Below, one piece after another: positions 4,442 to 62,193 of a stretch of DNA of 62,193 nt (position 1 is the stretch's first letter; each line of letters starts with the position of its first letter). A model generated the notes under the pieces. It was not told the origin of the DNA and ran no database searches. It saw only the letters and a list, made by a program, of their open reading frames with translations. The DNA comes from Armatimonadota bacterium. GTDB lineage: Bacteria > Armatimonadota > Hebobacteria > GCA-020354555 > CP070648. Location: the NCBI GenBank assembly GCA_035527535.1, contig DATLAK010000139.1, forward strand, positions 1 through 62,193, written 5' to 3'. The position numbers were made by a program, and so were the translations under genes.

Positions 4442-4530
4442 CGGCACCCCGGTCGCGCTTCACCGGCTTCAGGTCAGCCACAGGGCCTCGCGCATCACGG
4501 CAGTGGCGGCGCGAAGCACCGACCTGTGTA

Positions 4531-4552
4531 GCACAGCCGCCCCCGGCTGTGT
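4531..4552. repeat. REP-type hairpin, family CACAGCCG-N3/4-CGGCTGTG (copy 1 of 3)
   Basis: CACAGCCG cccc CGGCTGTG. The same arms recur at 59517-59535 and 62027-62046. Confidence 0.7.
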
Positions 4553-4863
4553 CAGCGCCGCCGTCGCCGCGCCGAGGGAACAGGCGAGGCTGACTGAATT
4601 CTCCCCCTCATCAAGGGCTTGTGATTACCCACATCTTCTTTGCGGAAGGGGCCAGTGACGGCCAGGGTGGCCGTCCTCCAACGGTGGAGGCCGGCTCCAC
4701 TGAGCCGGCTAGTGACCCGTCATGCCGGAGGCGAACCGGTCTGCATCTGGTCGCGCCCTGACAGGTCGGGACGCGAGGAACTCGCGACCCCGTGGGACTT
4801 ATGGGGCCGCGCGCCCGAGGGCGATCCCTACTCTGCGCGAACACACCCGCTGCAGCCTGCCAT

Positions 4864-20156: not shown

Positions 20157-23100
20157 TCACGTGCTGCGCACCTCGGCGGCGCAGCGGGCGACGGCAGGCA
20201 GCGGCTGGTGCCGCTCGATCCAGGCGCCGAAGATGCCCATGCTCAACTTGTGGCGTGGCACCACCTGCCCGGTCTGGGTCACCAGGTCCTTCTCGACCAG
20301 CCCTTCGAGGGCGAGGGTGACGGCAGCGGAGGAGAGCTCGCATCCGTGGGCCCGCAGCGAATCCGCGATCAGCGCTGACGTGGCGCCGCCGCGGCCGCAG
20401 TGGGCAATCGCCGCCAGCAGCGCCCGCTCGACCGCGTCCGGCTGCTCCCACAGGTAGCGCAGGTGCGTCTCGCCCCACTCGATGATTCCATCCACGCAGC
20501 CCTCGATCACGTCGTATGTCAAGTACGGCCGGTTGAGTCGCTGGCAGCGACTGACCAGGTAATGTCCCATGAGCTGCAGGAAGTAGGGATGTCCGCCGCT
20601 GAGCTCCCATATGCGATAGGCGGCGAGGCCGTCGCAGGCGATCCCCGCTTGCGCCATGGGCTGCACCACGCCCTCGTGGGCGGCGGATGAGTCTATGCGT
20701 CCCACCTTGCGATAGATCGCCAGATTGAACAGGAACGACCAGTAGTCCTCGCCCAGCTCCTCCAGCCGGTTGGTGCCGGACAGCAGGAAGGCGATGCGCG
20801 GCGAGTGCTGGATGAGGTGGCGAAGATAGGTGAATACGCTGTCCGCCAGCAGGCCGCTGCGCACCTTATGCTCCAGGTCGTCGAACTCGTCGAGCATGAC
20901 CAGCAGGCGCTTGTCGCCGGTGCGGATGAGTCGCTCCAGGAACCGCGGCAGCACCCCCAAGTCGGCGGCGAGTTCCTCCGGCGACGGCAGCCATGCCGCC
21001 GGCGCGCCCACGGCCTCCCGGCAGCGGTCGGCAATGGCGCGCCACAGGTGCCCGAGGTCACGCATCAGTACGCCCTGGACGTCAACGAACACCGGCCAAT
21101 AGGCGTCGCCGAAGCGCGCCTCCACCTGGCGCAGGATACTGGTCTTGCCGATCCGCCGCGGACCGATGAGGCCGACCACGTTCTCCTGGTAGGCCCCGTG
21201 CAGCGCCTCGCGCAGGAAGCTCAGGAGGTCCTCGCGCCCGATGAACATCGGCGAGTCACAGGCCAGCGGCTTGCCCGGCACGTAGGGGTTCTCCCGCGGG
21301 CGGGCGTCGGCGCACGGAGGCGCCGGTTCGAGCTGCAGGTCACAGCGGAAATCGGCGTGGTAATCGGTGCCGGCGGCGTCATCGTAGGCGACGGTGGCCG
21401 AGATGTCCACCGTCCCCGCCTGCGGTTGCGGGTGCTGGCCGCTCAGACGCAGGGGTAACAACATCTCCTCGCCGGGGGCCAGCTCTGCCAGCGGCCGTTG
21501 GTCGTGCGCGGAGACAATGTAGGGCGCTGGCGCCTCCGCGCAAACCCAGACGTTGGTGGCGGGAGCGTTACCCCGATTGCGCAGGTACAGGCCCAGCGTC
21601 ATCTCGGAATCGAGGCGCGGACGCTCCGGCAGCAGGGCGACCACTATCTCCGGATGGTCGGACAGGAAAGGTAGGACCGCCGAGACTGCTTCGGCGGCGG
21701 TGCCGAGCAGATGCGTGACCACCCGCCGATAGATGAGCGCGGGCGACCTGGCAGCTAGGGCTTGCCGCGACCGCAGCAACTGCAGCGCTTCCCTGAGGTG
21801 CGAAACCTGGTCCAGGCGCGACGACGCCTCGCACGCCGCGCGCAGGGGCTGAGCCGCGCACAATAATGCGTTAGTGTCTTCAATCCCGGGCACCAATGCC
21901 AGCACGTCCGCGAGCTCGCGCATCGAGGGGAAGCCTTGGCACGCCTGCACCAGTTGTTCGAGGGTGGGCGCGCGCAGCACCGCGCAGACGCCCTTGGCTG
22001 CGGCGCTCAACGCGGCGATAGCCGCGCCCTGGGGCTGTGCCTCCACCAGCGCGGCAAGGCGGTCAACGTGATCTTCCATGGGGTCGCGGCGAGCAAGGTC
22101 CACGAGTATGCCCATGAGGTCGGCGGTGACGAAATCGCGCGCCGCCTGGGCCAGTTCCTGCAGCACCCCCTCGCTGCCCGCCGCCACTCCGATGCGCACC
22201 CCGGCGCACAAGCGGGCCGCTTCGTCATGCGCCGCCAGCGCTGTCGCCAGCGCCTGCGCCAGTTGCGGTTCGGGAACGTCGGCCAGGTGCTCACCCAACA
22301 TCGCGACCGCGCGCCGGGGATCGTAGGTCCCCATCTCGCCGATGGCCCGGATGGCGTTGTGGCGCACCTCCGCGTGGTCGTCGCGGCGCAGCACGTCCAG
22401 CGCCTCCCACACGTCAGTTGCCACCTGCGGATCGTCGGCGGCCACCGCGAGGCTGCGGGCCGCCGCCGCTCGCACCGCGGGATGCGAATCTTTCGCCAGG
22501 TCGAGCAGCGACTGTCGCGCCTGAGGCGAGGACGCCCATACGCACTTGAGGGCCAACGCAGCGCGCGTCCGCACGACCGCCCACTTGTCATGCGCCAGCT
22601 CCGACAGAAGTAGGAGCACGGCGTGCCGTGCTCCTACGCCGCCCACGGCGGTCGCGTACTCGAGCCCGGCCGCCGCTCCCAGGCGTACATTGTGGTCGGC
22701 CGCTCCGGCAAACCGACGCAGCGCCCTGATCGCCCACTCCGGGCGCGCCGGGGCTGCGCGGCCGGTGGCCTCTGCGGCGGCGCCGCGAACGAAGGAGTCG
22801 TGGTCGCCCGCCAGTAGCTGCAGCATCGCGCAGGCCGCGTCGGCATCGGCGGCGGCGAAAGAGGCGGCGCTCATCGCCAGCTCCGCGCGCACCATGGGGC
22901 TGGGGTCCCGCGCGAGCGAAGTGAGCAAGCGCACGGCGGCGTCGGAATCGGGGTTGCTCGTTCCCGCCAGGGCGTGCGCCGCGCACCAGCGCCGGGAATC
23001 GTGGGCATCACCGGCGAGCCGCGCCGTCAGCTTGAGGGCGCCCGGAGCGGCCGCCGCCACGAGCTGTGCGAGGCCCGACGCAGCGCCCTGGTTGATGTAC

Positions 23101-23630
23101 TCGTCTGGTTTGGCGCTGGAGAACAGCAGGTCCGACAGCGCACGTACCGCCCGCACCGGGTGACCACGGCCTGCGCGGCCAATGGCTTCCGTCGCCGTCG
23201 CGCGCACCTGGCCGTCCATGTCACACGCGAGCGCCACCAGTAGATCGAAGGCGCTGTCGCTTTTCGCCGCGTGCTCCGCCAGCCCGGCGGCGACACCGAC
23301 GCGAACCTCGGCTTCGCCCGCCAGTTCCTCGCGGATCGCGGCCAGCACGCGTCCGTCCACCACGCAAGCACGGGATAACCAGTAGGCCCCGGCTTCGCGC
23401 ACCTCGGGGATGGGGTCGGCGCACATGCGCCTGAGGTCATCAATCGCGTCGCTCTGGGTCGCTGCCAGCGCGTAGAGGGCTGGTGCGGCACGGGCGCGGA
23501 GTTCGCAGGAGGGGCTGCGGAGCAGTCGTTCGATGGTTGCACGCGCCCAGCGATAGCGCTGAGCGTAGCGCCCCAAGCGGAGAGCATTGTGGGTCGAAGG
23601 GTCCGCTTCTCGCACCGAAGTCTGAAGCAT
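20157..23630 (-). CDS. HEAT-repeat / CARDB-like beta-sandwich / STAND-type P-loop ATPase / winged-helix protein (1157 aa)
   Basis: aa 45-500 carry repeated D.(S/P).VR..AA..L HEAT motifs. aa 675-770 are CARDB-like (LGLYLRNRGNAPATNVWV...LAPGEEMLLPLRL). NPYVPGKPL..FIGRE precedes Walker A GPRRIGKTS (nt 21138-21164). Walker B is LLVMLDEFDD (nt 20877-20906), followed by GGHPYF (GxP-like) and a C-terminal wHTH-like segment. Confidence 0.75.
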   Translation of the reverse strand: MLQTSVREADPSTHNALRLGRYAQRYRWARATIERLLRSPSCELRARAAPALYALAATQSDAIDDLRRMCADPIPEVREAGAYWLSRACVVDGRVLAAIREELAGEAEVRVGVAAGLAEHAAKSDSAFDLLVALACDMDGQVRATATEAIGRAGRGHPVRAVRALSDLLFSSAKPDEYINQGAASGLAQLVAAAAPGALKLTARLAGDAHDSRRWCAAHALAGTSNPDSDAAVRLLTSLARDPSPMVRAELAMSAASFAAADADAACAMLQLLAGDHDSFVRGAAAEATGRAAPARPEWAIRALRRFAGAADHNVRLGAAAGLEYATAVGGVGARHAVLLLLSELAHDKWAVVRTRAALALKCVWASSPQARQSLLDLAKDSHPAVRAAAARSLAVAADDPQVATDVWEALDVLRRDDHAEVRHNAIRAIGEMGTYDPRRAVAMLGEHLADVPEPQLAQALATALAAHDEAARLCAGVRIGVAAGSEGVLQELAQAARDFVTADLMGILVDLARRDPMEDHVDRLAALVEAQPQGAAIAALSAAAKGVCAVLRAPTLEQLVQACQGFPSMRELADVLALVPGIEDTNALLCAAQPLRAACEASSRLDQVSHLREALQLLRSRQALAARSPALIYRRVVTHLLGTAAEAVSAVLPFLSDHPEIVVALLPERPRLDSEMTLGLYLRNRGNAPATNVWVCAEAPAPYIVSAHDQRPLAELAPGEEMLLPLRLSGQHPQPQAGTVDISATVAYDDAAGTDYHADFRCDLQLEPAPPCADARPRENPYVPGKPLACDSPMFIGREDLLSFLREALHGAYQENVVGLIGPRRIGKTSILRQVEARFGDAYWPVFVDVQGVLMRDLGHLWRAIADRCREAVGAPAAWLPSPEELAADLGVLPRFLERLIRTGDKRLLVMLDEFDDLEHKVRSGLLADSVFTYLRHLIQHSPRIAFLLSGTNRLEELGEDYWSFLFNLAIYRKVGRIDSSAAHEGVVQPMAQAGIACDGLAAYRIWELSGGHPYFLQLMGHYLVSRCQRLNRPYLTYDVIEGCVDGIIEWGETHLRYLWEQPDAVERALLAAIAHCGRGGATSALIADSLRAHGCELSSAAVTLALEGLVEKDLVTQTGQVVPRHKLSMGIFGAWIERHQPLPAVARCAAEVRST

Positions 23631-23817
23631 ACTTGCATGTCCCCGCGGTCCACGCCTTGGTGCATCGCGGCTGCGCTTCAGCCTCTAGACTATTCCCCCC
23701 AGTTGTTCCCACCCGTAGAATGCCCCCCGGTTGCTGCGGCTCCTGATACCGCTTCGGCGGCTCCACCCCCCGCGAAAGGCAGGGAACCCGGCTGTGCACT
23801 CCCCGCCCCGGTCCGCT

Positions 23818-48036: not shown

Positions 48037-48514
48037 TTAGCCCGGATTATGCATTGTCAACGTGAGGCGCTCACCCAACGGGTGCGTCATCCCGAGTGGC
48101 TAAGCCCGGAGGGCCGCTGGCTAGGCGGCTAGGTCTGCTCTGCAGACCGCCGTGGCGGTGGCGGAGCCACCTAGCCACCTTGGGCCGCCATCCCGGTCTC
48201 TGACCTAGGGACACGGCGGTCGCTCCGCGACCTAGCCGCAACGCGAGGGATCCCCTACCGGGTGGCTCTGTCATCCCGAGGCTCTGCCTTCCCGAGGCTC
48301 TGCCTTCCCGTTGGGGAGGCAACGCCTTCCCCAGAGGGATTGGGGAGGCAACGCCTTCCCAGAGGGAGTTGCTCGCGGCTGGAATGGTTGCCCTTGGGCA
48401 TCCCTGGTAGGGGATTCCCGCCTTCGGCGCGCAAGCCCTCCGTAGGCGGGCAAGCCTCGGTCGCGTCGCTTCCTCGGAATGACATCCCCGAAGCCGCACG
48501 CATAATCCGGGTTA
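48037..48514. repeat. Composite nested palindromic element bounded by 15-16-nt inverted repeats
   Basis: Ends are TTAGCCCGGATTATGC and GCATAATCCGGGTTA; the right end overlaps the FmdB stop. The core is colinear with 62053-62193 but interrupted by two insert blocks (about 48098-48237 and 48263-48365). The second block contains short tandem duplications. Confidence 0.65.
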
Positions 48515-58656: not shown

Positions 58657-59283
58657 TCAAACACGAGGGCGCAACCGGCGCAGCGCCGGGCGGCACAGGC
58701 ACAGCAAGAGGCGTGACGCGCCGCGCCTGCTCAGGGCGCCGCCGCAGCCGCGACAGGCGCCCGCGTGCGCGCGGTTGGGGCGGCCGCAGCGCGGGCAATA
58801 GACCACGAATTCCTGTGTAGCCGTCGCCGCCAGCCGGCTGACTGCGGGGCGATCGGCCTCGTCCGCCAGCGTGACCGCTTCATCGAGGGCCGCCAGCCCG
58901 GCCTCGATTTGCCCGGTCGCCAGCAGCGCCCGTCCCAGGTGCAGGCGCACCGCGGGGTTAAGGGGCTGCTCCGCCGCCAGCTCCCACGCGTCGGCCAATC
59001 CGCTCTGCAGTTCACCCTCGGCGATGGAACCCCCGCGTCCGCGTCCCCACCGCCACCGCCCCGCCGGCGCCAGCACCAGCGGCAGCATCAGCCAATACCA
59101 CGCCGTGCCCAGCCGCCGCAGCGCGCACGCGCTCAACGCCGTCACCAGCGCGGCGCGCACCAGCACTCCCGGCCAGTTCTCATCCGCGCTCACCCAGCGC
59201 CCGATCAGCGCCGCCAGCGCGACCGAGAACGCCACCGCCCCCGCCGCCAGTTGGAAGCCGCGGAGGTAGTCGCCCGCCCACAT
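58657..59283 (-). CDS. Hypothetical membrane protein with a TPR-like helical segment and C-terminal zinc ribbon
   Basis: Three hydrophobic helices, then LGRALLATGQIEAGLAALDEAV and CPRCGRPN...CRGCG. Start set at ATG 59283; the longer ORF runs into a REP element. Confidence 0.45.
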   Translation of the reverse strand: MWAGDYLRGFQLAAGAVAFSVALAALIGRWVSADENWPGVLVRAALVTALSACALRRLGTAWYWLMLPLVLAPAGRWRWGRGRGGSIAEGELQSGLADAWELAAEQPLNPAVRLHLGRALLATGQIEAGLAALDEAVTLADEADRPAVSRLAATATQEFVVYCPRCGRPNRAHAGACRGCGGALSRRGASRLLLCLCRPALRRLRPRV

Positions 59284-59390
59284 CACACCGGTGTCGTTCC
59301 ACGATCGGGTGGTCGCGCCAACAGGGAATCGTCGGGCGCTTTGGTGGGGAAAGAGGCACACGGCCCCGCGACGACATACGGCGACGACGC

Positions 59391-59417
59391 TGTCATCCTG
59401 AGCGCCGGCGAAGGATC
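59391..59417. repeat. REP single arm, family TGTCAYYCYGAGCGNNGCGARGRATC
   Basis: TGTCATCCTGAGCGCCGGCGAAGGATC. Confidence 0.7.
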
Positions 59418-59516
59418 TTGGTATGCCTCCGCGGCGGCGCCTCACGCGTCGAGGGCCTCTCAGGAGCTCCGTTCTTGGCATCAAGGCGGCTCGAAGCGGC
59501 TTCCGGCCTCATGTGG

Positions 59517-59535
59517 CACAGCCGCCTCGGCTGTG
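59517..59535. repeat. REP-type hairpin CACAGCCG-N3-CGGCTGTG (copy 2 of 3)
   Basis: CACAGCCG cct CGGCTGTG. Confidence 0.7.
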
Positions 59536-59561
59536 TGGGCACCGCTCGGCAGTGCCTATTC

Positions 59562-59582
59562 AACCCCGACCAGTCGGGGTTC
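59562..59582. repeat. REP-type hairpin CCCCGAC-N3-GTCGGGG
   Basis: AACCCCGAC cag GTCGGGGTT. Related to 8231-8254 and 26355-26374. Confidence 0.7.
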
Positions 59583-59627: not shown

Positions 59628-61820
59628 CTAAGAACGGAGCTCCTGCAGGGCCTCCAGGTTGTTCCGCACCAGCACCGTCTTGGGATGGTCCTCCCCCAGG
59701 AACTCCCGGAGTATCCTCAGCGCCCGCTCGCAGTGCACCCGCGCGCCGGTCAGGTCGCCCAGGTCTTGCAGGACAAGGCCGAGATTGTTGACGTCCGTGG
59801 CAACCTCTGGATGGTCGGGGCCGTGGGCCTTCTCGTCAATCGCCAGCGCGCGCTCGAAGTGCGCCCGCGCGCCCGCCAGGTCGCCCAGGGCTTGCAGGAC
59901 AAGGCCGAGGTTGTTGATCCGGATCGCCACCTTCGGGTGGTCGGGGCCGAATGCCTTCTCGTCAATCGCCAGCGCGCGCTCGAAGTGCGCCCGCGCGCCC
60001 GCCAAGTCGCCCTGGTCTTGCAGGACGCTGCCGAGGTTGTTGGCGACTACGGCGACTTGCGGATGGTCGGGGCCGAATGCCTTCTCGTCAATCGCCAGCG
60101 CGCGCTCGAAGGCGGTCCTCGCCTGAGCGAACTGCGCGCGTCCCCTAAGGTACGCCCCCGACTCGTTCAGCAGGCGCGCGGTTGCGTCCGGAGCCGCCGC
60201 AAGCGCCTCCGCGTGCTCCGCCGCCGACAGCGCATGGGGCAGCAGGCGCGAGCACGTGGGCCAGGTCCGCACGTCATCACTGTCATACGGAAAGGCTTGG
60301 TTCACCAGGCGCACGGCGGCCTCGACCCATGTCTTGCGGGCATCGTCGGGCAGGCGGTCACGGGTCACCGCCTGCACCAGCGGGTGCACCGACAGGGCGT
60401 CGTCGCCGACCTCGACCAGGGAGTAGCGCCGCAGGGCTGCCACAGCCTCATTGAACGCCAACTCGTCTCCCGCCGGGGCAGCCAGCAGTTCCGGCAAGTG
60501 CTTTCCGCCCTGCCGCAGAAGGTCGCACGGGGTGTCATCAGGCGCCAGGAAAGCGCAGAGGTTCAATAGGCCCGCACCGGCGCGCGACTCGTCACACAGC
60601 CGGTCCATGGCCAGACACCACGTGGTGGCCACGGTGGCGGGGTAATCCAGAGGCGGCTTCTCCTTTGCCCAGAGGTCTTCGTGTCGAGCCTTGAAGAGCT
60701 CAACGTAGCTCGCGAGTGTCGCGCCTGTGGCTTCGATGTACGCCGCCGCCTGCTCCAGGGCCAACGGCAGGTCACCCAGGGCCTCCGCCAGCGCGCTGGC
60801 TGCCTTCCGGTCCTTCTGTTTGGTACGCTTGAGCAGGAACTTCACCGACTCCGCCGGTTTCCATACCTTCACTTGCAGCGGACGCGCGACCGCACCCCAT
60901 GCCAGGTTGCGAGAGGTGATGATGACGTGCCCGCCGGCCCCCTGCGGCAAGCAGCCCTGAAGGTCGGTCGGCTCCGCCGCGTTGTCGAAGACCAGCAGCC
61001 ACCCGTCGCGCTTATCGAGCCACCGGCGGACCGCCTCGACGATTTCGCGTTGGTCGGTGGCATCTTTCTCGGGCAATCCGAGCGGCCCGGCGAGGGATGC
61101 ATACTCGCTGGCCAGCGCCGCCGGCTCCTCTGAGCGCACCCACCAGATGATGTCGTAATCAGCCGCGTGAGCGTATGCGTACTCCAGCGCAAGCTGCGTC
61201 TTGCCCACCCCGCCGAGGCCGTGAATGGCCTGAGTCAGCGCGGCAGGCGTGCCCGAGGTCAGCGCCTCGCGCAGGCGCTTGAGAAGGTCTTTCCGCCCGG
61301 TGAAGTTGCGGTTGCGGGGGTGGGGGAGGTGACAGGTCGCGGGCAATGCTCCGGGAAAGTGCGGGTGTTCGGCGACGGAGCGCGCGGCCTGCCCGGGGAA
61401 GGCAGGCGCTGTTGTGGGCTTGGCGCGGCCGAGCCGTACACCTTCGAGCAAGGTGCGGCTGGCGCTCCGCTCGTCCTTCCCTACAAGGTCAATGTAGATG
61501 ACCTGCGCCAGCAACCCTCTCGGGTCGCACTCCCGGACGCGCACCGGCAGCAGGGTGCCTTTCTCGCCTGTTGGATCCTGGGCGAAAGCGGCAGCCCACT
61601 CAGCTTGGGTGAAAAGCGCCTCCACGTAATCGCGAGAGAGAACGGCGACGGTGCGCGCGGCTTCAGTGGCGGCGCGGTCCATCTCGAGGACGAAACTGGA
61701 GCCTGGCCGGAAGTCCCAGGCCTGGAGCATGGTGGTGAATCCGGCCTCCTCCAACTGCCACGCGATCCACTCCGCCCACACCCGGTCCGCGCTGTTGTAG
61801 CTGATGAAGAAGTCTTTCAC
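59628..61820 (-). CDS. TIR / NB-ARC / TPR STAND NTPase (NLR-like)
   Basis: TIR: KDFFISYNSADRVWAEWIAWQLEEAGF...VLSRDYVEALFTQAEW. NB-ARC: Walker A GLGGVGKTQLA (nt 61197-61220), Walker B WLLVFDNA, IITSRN and GDLPLALEQAA (GLPL motif). C-terminal TPR_10/12-type repeats (NNLGLVLQ.LGDL.GAR..FERAL). Probable GTG start at 61820 (AGAGGA upstream); the ORF track extends to 61928. Confidence 0.85.
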   Translation of the reverse strand: MKDFFISYNSADRVWAEWIAWQLEEAGFTTMLQAWDFRPGSSFVLEMDRAATEAARTVAVLSRDYVEALFTQAEWAAAFAQDPTGEKGTLLPVRVRECDPRGLLAQVIYIDLVGKDERSASRTLLEGVRLGRAKPTTAPAFPGQAARSVAEHPHFPGALPATCHLPHPRNRNFTGRKDLLKRLREALTSGTPAALTQAIHGLGGVGKTQLALEYAYAHAADYDIIWWVRSEEPAALASEYASLAGPLGLPEKDATDQREIVEAVRRWLDKRDGWLLVFDNAAEPTDLQGCLPQGAGGHVIITSRNLAWGAVARPLQVKVWKPAESVKFLLKRTKQKDRKAASALAEALGDLPLALEQAAAYIEATGATLASYVELFKARHEDLWAKEKPPLDYPATVATTWCLAMDRLCDESRAGAGLLNLCAFLAPDDTPCDLLRQGGKHLPELLAAPAGDELAFNEAVAALRRYSLVEVGDDALSVHPLVQAVTRDRLPDDARKTWVEAAVRLVNQAFPYDSDDVRTWPTCSRLLPHALSAAEHAEALAAAPDATARLLNESGAYLRGRAQFAQARTAFERALAIDEKAFGPDHPQVAVVANNLGSVLQDQGDLAGARAHFERALAIDEKAFGPDHPKVAIRINNLGLVLQALGDLAGARAHFERALAIDEKAHGPDHPEVATDVNNLGLVLQDLGDLTGARVHCERALRILREFLGEDHPKTVLVRNNLEALQELRS

Positions 61821-62026
61821 CGCATCCTCTCGGACGACCGGCGCTCTCGGACTCCGGCAAACGGTTGGGGGCACGAGAACTGCGGAACACCCGGACGGAG
61901 GCCGCGACCCCCGAAGCGCCCCCGGCACTTGCTTTCTGCCTGCCTGGTTGGTGCTCCTTCACGCCGCGCGCGCGCCGCAGGGGATCACCGCGGCGGCGGC
62001 GAACGGGAGGGCGCAACGGAACCGGA

Positions 62027-62046
62027 CACAGCCGAGGGCGGCTGTG
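62027..62046. repeat. REP-type hairpin CACAGCCG-N4-CGGCTGTG (copy 3 of 3)
   Basis: CACAGCCG aggg CGGCTGTG. Confidence 0.7.
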
Positions 62047-62052
62047 CCACAC

Positions 62053-62193
62053 CTAACCCAGATTATGCATTCCGAGCGTGAAGAGCTCACCCAACGGGTG
62101 TGTCATCCCGAGCAACGCGAGGGATCCCCTACCGGGGTTGCTCGCGGCTGGAATCGCTGATCTTGCGCATCCCCGATAGGGGATTCCTCGGGC
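62053..62193. repeat. Core copy of the palindromic element seen at 48037-48514 (cut by the window end)
   Basis: CTAACCCAGATTATGCAT...CTCACCCAACGGGTGTGTCATCCCGAGCAACGCGAGGGATCCCCTACCGGGGTTGCTCGCGGCTGGAAT... is colinear with the non-inserted parts of the 48-kb element. Confidence 0.65.

Follow-up and report, generated by a model that had tools for sequence, protein, structure and literature searches.

The window analyzed here is the whole of the 62,193-nt contig DATLAK010000139.1, which belongs to the Armatimonadota bacterium assembly GCA_035527535.1. It carries a gene on the minus strand (59628-61820) coding for a single protein with TIR, NB-ARC and TPR regions. By analogy with known immune receptors, this protein is interpreted as a solitary NLR-like STAND receptor in which a trigger would lead to oligomerization, NAD+ depletion and abortive infection, and we give this reading a probability of about 60%. 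The reading draws on an intact reading frame, an invariant glutamate in the TIR domain, an NB-ARC switch with its characteristic motifs, a TPR array with variable units and the gene neighborhoods of 84 related loci.

Gene structure and start codon

The assembly consists of 192 contigs and has a completeness of 95.75%. The analysis supports an intact single open reading frame (ORF) which starts at GTG 61820 and codes for 730 amino acids (aa). The open frame reaches a further GTG at 61928, which would give a 766-aa form (59628-61928, minus strand). GTG 61820 was preferred because a GAGAGGA box resembling a Shine-Dalgarno sequence precedes it (Table 1), the consensus of 114 homologues starts with MKDFFISYN exactly at this position, and the database cluster representative identical to the protein is also 730 aa long. 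Residue numbers refer to the 730-aa form except where the 766-aa form is named.

A preliminary description made from the letters of the DNA had proposed the same ORF, strand and domain order, and these agree with the ORF list, the translation and Pfam. Its choice of GTG 61820 stands on the evidence given above. The motifs it quoted, FISYNSADRVWAEWIAWQLEEAGF, GLGGVGKT, LLVFDNA, ITSRN and GDLPLAL, were all located where it had placed them. It had also proposed that one polypeptide joins a TIR effector head, an NB-ARC (AP-ATPase) switch and a TPR array, and Pfam, the motifs and Foldseek confirmed this. The profile search that it suggested returned all three of TIR_2, NB-ARC and TPR_12 from Pfam. 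It had named a truncated TIR domain as evidence that would count against it; this is excluded by the TIR_2 match, which covers model positions 1-118 of 122. Chance resemblance is countered by the scores of TIR_2 (117.7 bits), TPR_12 (176.7 bits) and the family model NF040586 (462 bits), and homologues are full-length with 50-69% identity to the protein.

TIR domain and the conserved glutamate

The TIR_2 match corresponds to residues 40-156 of the 766-aa form. In an AlphaFold2 (AF2) model built from the 114 aligned homologues, strands and helices alternate in the TIR region and the predicted local distance difference test (pLDDT) score of the block is about 75-89. A TIR-domain profile search matched solved TIR structures and placed E74 opposite the glutamate of PdTIR (3h16, '..pqkEL') and of the bacterial TIR 7uxr ('..TEYEL'). 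The same column is the one which, by our own counting and published knowledge, we take to be that of AbTir E208. The best solved-structure matches also include the non-enzymatic metazoan TIRs Hydra TRR2 and TLR2/15.

The glutamate required by NADase-type TIRs, which the preliminary description had reported as retained, is invariant in the 114 homologues and aligned with that of the bacterial structures. Its codon, GAG 61599-61601, was given correctly; the residue number E110 counts from GTG 61928 and becomes E74 when counted from GTG 61820. With a TIR fold and this glutamate, the domain has the sequence features expected of a putative NADase-type TIR.

NB-ARC switch, winged helix and overall fold

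The NB-ARC match lies at residues 213-382 of the 766-aa form and is followed by DUF7779, the winged helix of the nucleotide-binding and oligomerization domain (NOD). Residues G201, G203, G204, G206 and K207 of the P-loop, D279 of Walker B, S303 and P352-L355 of the GLPL motif are invariant in the 114 homologues. N280 is near-invariant, so the 'D-N' form of Walker B is a family trait. Replacement of the usual D-D/E by D-N suggests a nucleotide-exchange switch in which hydrolysis would be slow or lacking. H479 of the MHD-like motif is also near-invariant, while the adjoining position is P480 in this copy and R in at least 90% of the homologues.

The AF2 model has a mean pLDDT of 87.7 and a predicted template modeling score (pTM) of 0.68, and the only stretch below pLDDT 50 is residues 137-149. 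This stretch belongs to a low-confidence linker of roughly 55 residues between TIR and NB-ARC. In a Foldseek search against the PDB, the TIR and NOD together aligned with the RPP1 TIR-NLR tetramer (7crc) across 558 columns, and the NOD matched Apaf-1, CED-4 and NRC3. On account of these matches the NTPase was assigned to the NB-ARC/AP-ATPase type. The P-loop, Walker B, sensor-I arginine, GLPL motif, MHD-type histidine and fold that characterize this clade are all present.

TPR array and its DNA repeats

The TPR array is of the kinesin-light-chain type. In Pfam, TPR_12 and TPR_10 match it in four stretches of the 766-aa form; KLC1 and KLC2 TPR structures are its top matches by both sequence and fold (Foldseek), and the block has a pLDDT of 92-98 in the AF2 model. 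The canonical units are encoded by a tandem DNA repeat of 126 nt. Codon-by-codon comparison of the units revealed 17 variable codons, of which 10 are non-synonymous, and eight of these ten fall at unit positions 18, 21-23, 28, 32-33 and 41. Positions 18, 21, 22, 28, 32 and 41 are also among the highest-entropy sites in 583 units of the family; positions 23, 33 and 37 are not markedly variable across the same units. The scaffold residues of the unit are nearly fixed. To judge from the sequences, this pattern of variability between units fits a ligand-binding face.

The N-terminal cap and the C-terminal cap unit (LGEDHPKTVLVRNNL...) agree with the ends of the family consensus. The protein deviates at 11 of 175 near-invariant columns, and 32 of 113 homologues deviate equally or more. 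Decay of the gene was considered and rejected, because both caps match the consensus and the deviations are inside the family range.

A bolder and doubtful possibility is that the 42-aa units form a recombining, 'programmable' recognition array. Specificity would then reside in about 7-8 positions per unit and be reassorted by gain, loss and exchange of units, on a near-invariant TIR-NOD chassis that moves between bacterial phyla and archaea. If this were true, the family would be a prokaryotic counterpart of the allelic NLR series of fungi and plants, with a ligand code readable from sequence.

Family size and distribution

The protein belongs to NCBIfam NF040586 (FxSxx_TPR equivalog, 'FxSxx-COOH system tetratricopeptide repeat protein'), which it matches with 462.4 bits against a cut-off of 300 over residues 204-758 of the 766-aa form; the same model gave 460 bits in a six-frame search of the genome. 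A word-indexed search scored 8,000 candidates, of which more than 7,298 were relatives. The TIR_2, NB-ARC, DUF7779 and TPR order is shared, with 44-69% identity over the full length, by most of the 120 best relatives. When the first 500 residues (TIR and NOD, no TPR) were used as phmmer query, 9,572 representatives of 50%-identity clusters were matched at E<=1e-30, and most of the best 150 matches listed span the whole 500-residue query. In GTDB species genomes, relatives occur in Chloroflexia, Anaerolineae, Dehalococcoidia, Verrucomicrobiota, Gemmatimonadales, Chlorobiaceae, Alphaproteobacteria, Acidobacteriota, Planctomycetota, Cyanobacteria, Sorangium, many actinomycetes and the archaeal Methanothrix. 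With so many clusters, spread over many phyla and methanogenic archaea, the combination is not rare.

Members of this kind have been described in the literature. In actinobacteria, FxSxx peptide systems were found to be coupled to an AP-ATPase that has an N-terminal TIR and C-terminal TPRs (Kaur, Burroughs, Iyer & Aravind 2020, PMC7159879). Bacterial TIR-NB-TPR proteins were noted as counterparts of the plant TNPs (Johanndrees et al. 2022, PMC9806590). A 2026 census of STAND proteins, AP-ATPases included, lists 359,879 representatives in 589 clades (PMC13581612).

The gene is a further example of a known, very large and computationally catalogued family. The preliminary description had called the combination probably uncharacterized in this lineage, which understates its cataloguing in the NCBIfam equivalog model, in two of these papers (PMC7159879, PMC9806590) and in thousands of TIR and NOD clusters. 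The significance of the gene lies with the family more than with the single copy, as the architecture is among the most abundant of TIR-STAND proteins and is absent from PADLOC. One successful reconstitution would annotate thousands of genes. With the gene itself, an NLR-like family gains one more intact member, from Armatimonadota, a phylum that has been little studied.

Partner genes and relation to defense systems

The flanks of 84 homologous loci were compared by all-against-all clustering of 3,037 flanking ORFs. No conserved neighbor was found across the 84 loci; the commonest recurring neighbors, generic ABC-transporter ATPases, reached 11 of 84, and no other family exceeded this number. 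Close homologues on three long contigs (415 kb, 518 kb and 3.9 Mb) are flanked by unrelated metabolic genes. A Peptidase_S26 signal-peptidase gene was seen at or near the homologue in two of the three long-contig loci (L014:12432-13019 and L012:5684-6484), with an 11-nt overlap with the homologue stop in L014. This proximity is probably a coincidence, and the neighbor clustering gave it no support.

Tandem NLR-like paralogues stand directly upstream of the homologue, on the same strand, in nine of the 84 loci. Examples are L040:5082-7826 in Sorangium cellulosum, L087:5794-7929 in Actinoplanes italicus and L042:4792-7341 in a metagenome-assembled genome of Polyangiaceae. By Pfam, the Sorangium paralogue is a SIR2_2-DUF7779 protein, in which NB-ARC-type motifs were read by eye, and the Actinoplanes paralogue is a TIR-NB-ARC-TPR protein. 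Such loci are small NLR gene arrays with the effector heads swapped. A second NLR-like gene was also seen in the present genome (C151:5335-7692, minus strand), as an open frame of 786 codons with hydrophobic, probably membrane-spanning N-terminal segments, NB-ARC (E 6e-7) and TPR_12/TPR_7. This gene may be a paralogue in which the same chassis bears a membrane effector.

The FxSxx-COOH functional system was reportedly described by Haft & Basu. The NCBI name 'FxSxx-COOH system' is by itself no evidence of such a system, and its partners were searched for in the genome. The best match to FxsB (TIGR04269) reached 114 bits against a cut-off of 370, FxsA (TIGR04268) gave only two weak matches with a best score of 17.9 bits against 28, and the HExxH peptidase (TIGR04267) gave no match. 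Membership was rejected, as FxsA, FxsB and the HExxH peptidase were not found. A vWA-MoxR associated (VMAP) ternary conflict system was likewise rejected, since VMAP-C (PF20028) had no match in this genome; the same search was positive in Actinoplanes italicus and Sorangium. These absences apply to an assembly that is 95.75% complete and in which a repeat cuts the upstream flank of the gene. A Thoeris-type operon was not seen either: no neighbor is conserved in the 84 loci, and the downstream ORF is unrelated and separated from the gene by hairpins. With no neighbor conserved and no partner families in the genome, the gene is a stand-alone unit, as the preliminary description had supposed.

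Its comparison of the protein with Avs holds as an analogy and not as membership. Avs and bNACHT profiles in PADLOC gave no match at E<=0.01, and the NOD is of the Apaf-1/CED-4/plant-NLR type. At the same threshold PADLOC-DB returned only weak TIR-domain matches (PDC-S66 at 1.8e-7, bSEFIR, Aga_TIR and SAVED_TIR) and a generic TPR match. No NACHT family was among the Pfam matches at E<=0.01, which had NB-ARC and AAA_22 instead.

Genomic locus and horizontal exchange

Patchy presence, a break of synteny, identity across phyla, flanking copies of a palindrome and an adjoining dispersed repeat together point to an accessory, horizontally exchanged gene. Homologues were found in nine of 41 relatives, and none was found in G001, the only genome of the same family. 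Synteny with G001 includes the oxidoreductase, dnaG, rpoD and a small membrane-protein ORF, and ends at about 58.5 kb of the window (G001:C1:3277150, L110:7156). Neither the gene nor a 275-aa ORF (58657-59484) has a counterpart in the syntenic region of G001; this ORF has a weak TPR_19 match and a C-terminal CxxC...CxxC motif. The downstream genes of G001 map to three other contigs of the present genome (C110, C124 and C185) and do not reveal the missing upstream neighbor.

The protein shares 57-69% identity with others that carry the labels Chloroflexia, Thermodesulfobacteriota, Tectomicrobia, Acetobacteraceae and Methanosarcinaceae. The nearest named relatives of RpoD are all from Armatimonadota, the closest at 81% (on a contig matching G001) and the rest, outside the family, at 55-67%. 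The protein is thus as similar to those of other phyla and of methanogens as RpoD is within Armatimonadota. No compositional sign of recent transfer was found, the G+C fraction of the gene being 0.66-0.70 against 0.64-0.74 over the profiled 12 kb.

The palindrome is of 25 nt and resembles repetitive extragenic palindromic (REP) elements (ACACAGCCGAGG(G)CGGCTGTGCCAC). It has more than 40 copies in the genome, among them window positions 4526-4553 and 48238-48262, and its copies bracket the gene, one on each side. The dispersed repeat resembles a miniature inverted-repeat transposable element (MITE). A blastn search of the genome found copies 88-100% identical at C19:34904-35041, C50:11915-12046, C33:14384-14514 and C84:79885-79989 and on C59, C80, C81, C140 and C149, and the repeat ends or interrupts at least nine other contigs. 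The break of the assembly is attributed to this repeat, which stands at the contig end; the 141-nt identity of contig ends suggests a k-mer overlap left by the assembler.

A 23-nt inverted repeat with 87% complementarity (59454-59476 and 59630-59652) was also observed, one arm of which lies over the final seven codons of the gene and reaches partly into its stop codon. Its arms enclose the 3' hairpin and one REP-like copy, and no other site repeats the enclosed 200 bp as a unit. That a MITE had truncated the gene at its 3' end was rejected, because the C-terminal cap matches the consensus and the enclosed sequence is not repeated.

Proposed mechanism and alternative explanations

The proposed mechanism is modeled on Avs proteins, plant TNL resistosomes and SARM1/AbTir-type TIRs. 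At rest, the TPR array and winged helix would keep the NB-ARC closed and nucleotide-bound. The variable TPR face would bind a protein or peptide, most probably one encoded by a phage or some other mobile element; phage proteins are the ligands of the TPR sensors in Avs proteins (PMC13581612). Binding would open the switch and the NB-ARC domains would oligomerize, pressing the TIR heads together so that composite NADase sites could form around E74. TIR NADase activity requires the conserved glutamate and self-association (PMC9806590). The output would most likely be a depletion of NAD+ that stops the growth of the infected cell or kills it, and not a diffusible signal. Depletion is favored because no effector gene is linked, and stand-alone and Avs-borne TIRs have been treated as NAD+ depleters (10.64898/2025.12.03.692087).

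Several observations weigh against this interpretation. A defense island was sought and rejected, since the neighborhood, with a SpoU methylase and an oxidoreductase besides dnaG and rpoD, is of a housekeeping kind. Only 373 nt separate the start codon from the contig end, and the upstream neighbor gene lies outside the contig. PADLOC has no model for a TIR-NB-ARC-TPR protein, and no experimental test of any NF040586-type member was found in the searchable literature. In the TIR profile alignment the column of E74 is Glu also in TLR2, which is not an NADase; since non-enzymatic TLR TIRs keep it, presence of E74 is necessary and not sufficient for NADase activity. Finally, the protein is the shortest among the 114 homologues, whose medians are 885 aa and five units; it has 730 aa and three canonical units.

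The gap upstream bears on two alternatives. In one, the TIR makes a signaling nucleotide (a cyclic ADP-ribose isomer or similar) which activates an unlinked effector, on the pattern of Thoeris or plant TNL-EDS1. The same glutamate serves to make signals in many TIRs of bacteria and plants (PMC9806590, 10.64898/2025.12.03.692087), and the short flank leaves room for an upstream partner. We nevertheless regard this as quite unlikely, since neither flank has a conserved neighbor in the 84 loci, contigs of 0.4 to 3.9 Mb included, and a published systematic screen for TIR signaling dropped stand-alone and STAND-borne TIRs as likely NAD+ depleters (10.64898/2025.12.03.692087). In the other, the protein is the effector arm of a multi-gene conflict system of the FxSxx-COOH peptide or VMAP kind, whose partners are unlinked or lie beyond the contig end. 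The NF040586 score above cut-off agrees with this, as does the position of a TIR-AP-ATPase-TPR gene downstream of an FxSxx peptide-processing module in actinobacteria (PMC7159879), and the upstream flank is missing. It is highly improbable all the same, because FxsB, FxsA and the HExxH peptidase were below cut-offs or unmatched and VMAP-C was unmatched in an assembly roughly 96% complete, and close homologues stand on long contigs without such neighbors.

A role outside antiviral defense would make the protein either a STAND switch that governs kin recognition or regulated cell death in an organism living socially or as filaments, or a scaffold with a TIR adaptor as in TLR/MyD88. The family is enriched in lineages of complex lifestyle (Chloroflexia, actinomycetes, myxobacteria and cyanobacteria; GTDB survey above and PMC7159879), and clades of STAND proteins switch between defense and non-defense roles (PMC13581612). 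The lack of a defense island and the non-enzymatic Hydra TRR2 and TLR2/15 among the best TIR structure matches would also suit such a role. Set against this are the invariant glutamate, hard to explain for a pure adaptor, and the patchy presence, cross-domain transfer and hypervariable repeat units typical of conflict genes, and we hold the explanation to have only a small chance of being right. The short length raises the further question whether this copy is functionally compromised, by unit loss or assembly collapse of the 126-nt repeats that shortened the array, or by decay. The proline at 480 beside the MHD-like histidine could be taken in the same sense. The frame is open, both caps match the family consensus, the deviations at near-invariant columns are no more numerous than in many homologues, and relatives of 730-780 aa exist, all of which makes a compromised copy very improbable. 

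Comparison with known systems

Within the NF040586 family, the protein shares collinear architecture, 50-69% full-length identity and the same invariant motifs with many members. It differs in that the FxSxx peptide, radical S-adenosylmethionine (rSAM), HExxH and VMAP partners were not found in this genome or in the loci of close homologues, and its array of three canonical units is at the short end.

The plant TNPs (TIR-NBARC-TPR, formerly XTNX) have the same domain order and an NB-ARC with P-loop, Walker B, GLPL and MHD-type motifs. The likeness to the present protein is one of domain order, as read from Pfam. The likeness of plant and bacterial proteins is confined to the NB domain and does not extend to TIRs or TPRs, the TIRs of TNPs grouping apart from bacterial TIRs (PMC9806590). 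A maize TNP triggers EDS1-independent cell death, and TIR NADase activity and the associated cell death generally need the catalytic glutamate (PMC9806590).

The RPP1 (7crc) and ROQ1 resistosomes and the Apaf-1 and CED-4 apoptosomes resemble the protein in fold and offer a model for TIR activation driven by oligomerization. Their sensors are leucine-rich repeat (LRR) or WD40 domains in place of the TPR array found here, and identity is only 12-19%. We know of no EDS1-type downstream pathway in bacteria.

Avs proteins were reportedly described by Gao et al. in 2022 and bNACHT proteins by Kibby et al. in 2023. Avs1-5/7 (PMC13581612) and bNACHT are likewise single-gene proteins with effector, NTPase and repeat sensor, some with TIR or SIR2 heads, and their TPR-like sensors bind conserved phage proteins. 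Unlike them, the present NTPase is of the AP-ATPase/NB-ARC clade and lacks any PADLOC Avs/bNACHT or Pfam NACHT match. Their sensor is a large TPR-like domain, irregular and at least 400 aa long, whereas the one here is a short, regular array of 42-aa repeats.

The fungal NB-ARC-TPR NLRs (Dyrka et al. 2014; PMC13449251; PMC12258605) also have near-identical TPR_10/12 units with variation at few positions per unit, and their unit number varies among relatives. Their heads are usually HET, HeLo or PNP-UDP, in contrast to the TIR of this protein.

Features of the locus

The gene lies 1.7 kb downstream of the dnaG-rpoD pair and on the opposite strand. Its neighbors in the window code for a heparinase-like protein, a SpoU methylase, a transglutaminase-like protein, a GFO/IDH/MocA oxidoreductase, DnaG and RpoD. 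Scans for consensus promoters and terminators gave nothing useful and did not call the hairpin at the 3' end, which was read directly from the sequence. The coordinates of all features are listed in Table 1.

Table 1. Coordinates of the TIR-NB-ARC-TPR gene, its domains and motifs, and adjoining sequence elements in the window.
Feature	Position	Strand	Evidence or remark
TIR-NB-ARC-TPR coding sequence	59628..61820	-	730 aa and stop, GTG start; ORF list and translation
Shine-Dalgarno-like box GAGAGGA	61825..61831	-	4-5 nt before GTG 61820; direct sequence reading
TIR domain, residues 4-120 (730-aa numbering)	61461..61811	-	Pfam TIR_2, E 5.7e-34, 117.7 bits, model 1-118 of 122
Putative catalytic Glu E74, codon GAG	61599..61601	-	invariant in 114 homologues
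NB-ARC nucleotide-binding domain	60783..61292	-	Pfam NB-ARC, 34.2 bits against cut-off 23.5, E 2e-8
P-loop GLGGVGKT	61197-61220	-	sequence motif
Walker B LLVFDNA	60978-60998	-	sequence motif
Sensor-I ITSRN	60906-60920	-	sequence motif
GLPL-type GDLPLAL	60756-60776	-	sequence motif
DUF7779 (winged helix of NOD)	60342..60587	-	Pfam PF25000, E 1e-9; residues 448-529 of 766-aa form
MHD-like motif SVHPLVQ	60372-60392	-	within DUF7779
Kinesin-light-chain-type TPR array: N-terminal cap, three canonical 42-aa units, C-terminal cap unit	59631..60272	-	TPR_12 E 9.9e-53, TPR_10 E 1.9e-42
126-nt tandem DNA repeat encoding TPR units	59718..60111	-	3.1 copies, 83-86% identical; Tandem Repeats Finder
Hairpin AACCCCGAC-TG-GTCGGGGTT	59562..59581	-	47 nt after stop codon, no U-tract; sequence reading
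REP-like palindrome (ACACAGCCGAGG..CGGCTGTG)	59512..59536	.	downstream of gene; inverted-repeat pairs I8 and I16
REP-like palindrome, second copy	62026..62051	.	about 205 nt upstream of start codon
MITE-like dispersed repeat, roughly 200 bp, terminal inverted repeats (TAACCCAGATTATGCAT...ATGCATAATCCGGGTTAG)	62044..62193	.	start only; runs off contig end

Elsewhere in the window, an open frame of 1175 codons (20160-23684, minus strand) contains HEAT repeats and a C-terminal AAA_22-type P-loop ATPase, and has a weak NF040586 match at the P-loop region.

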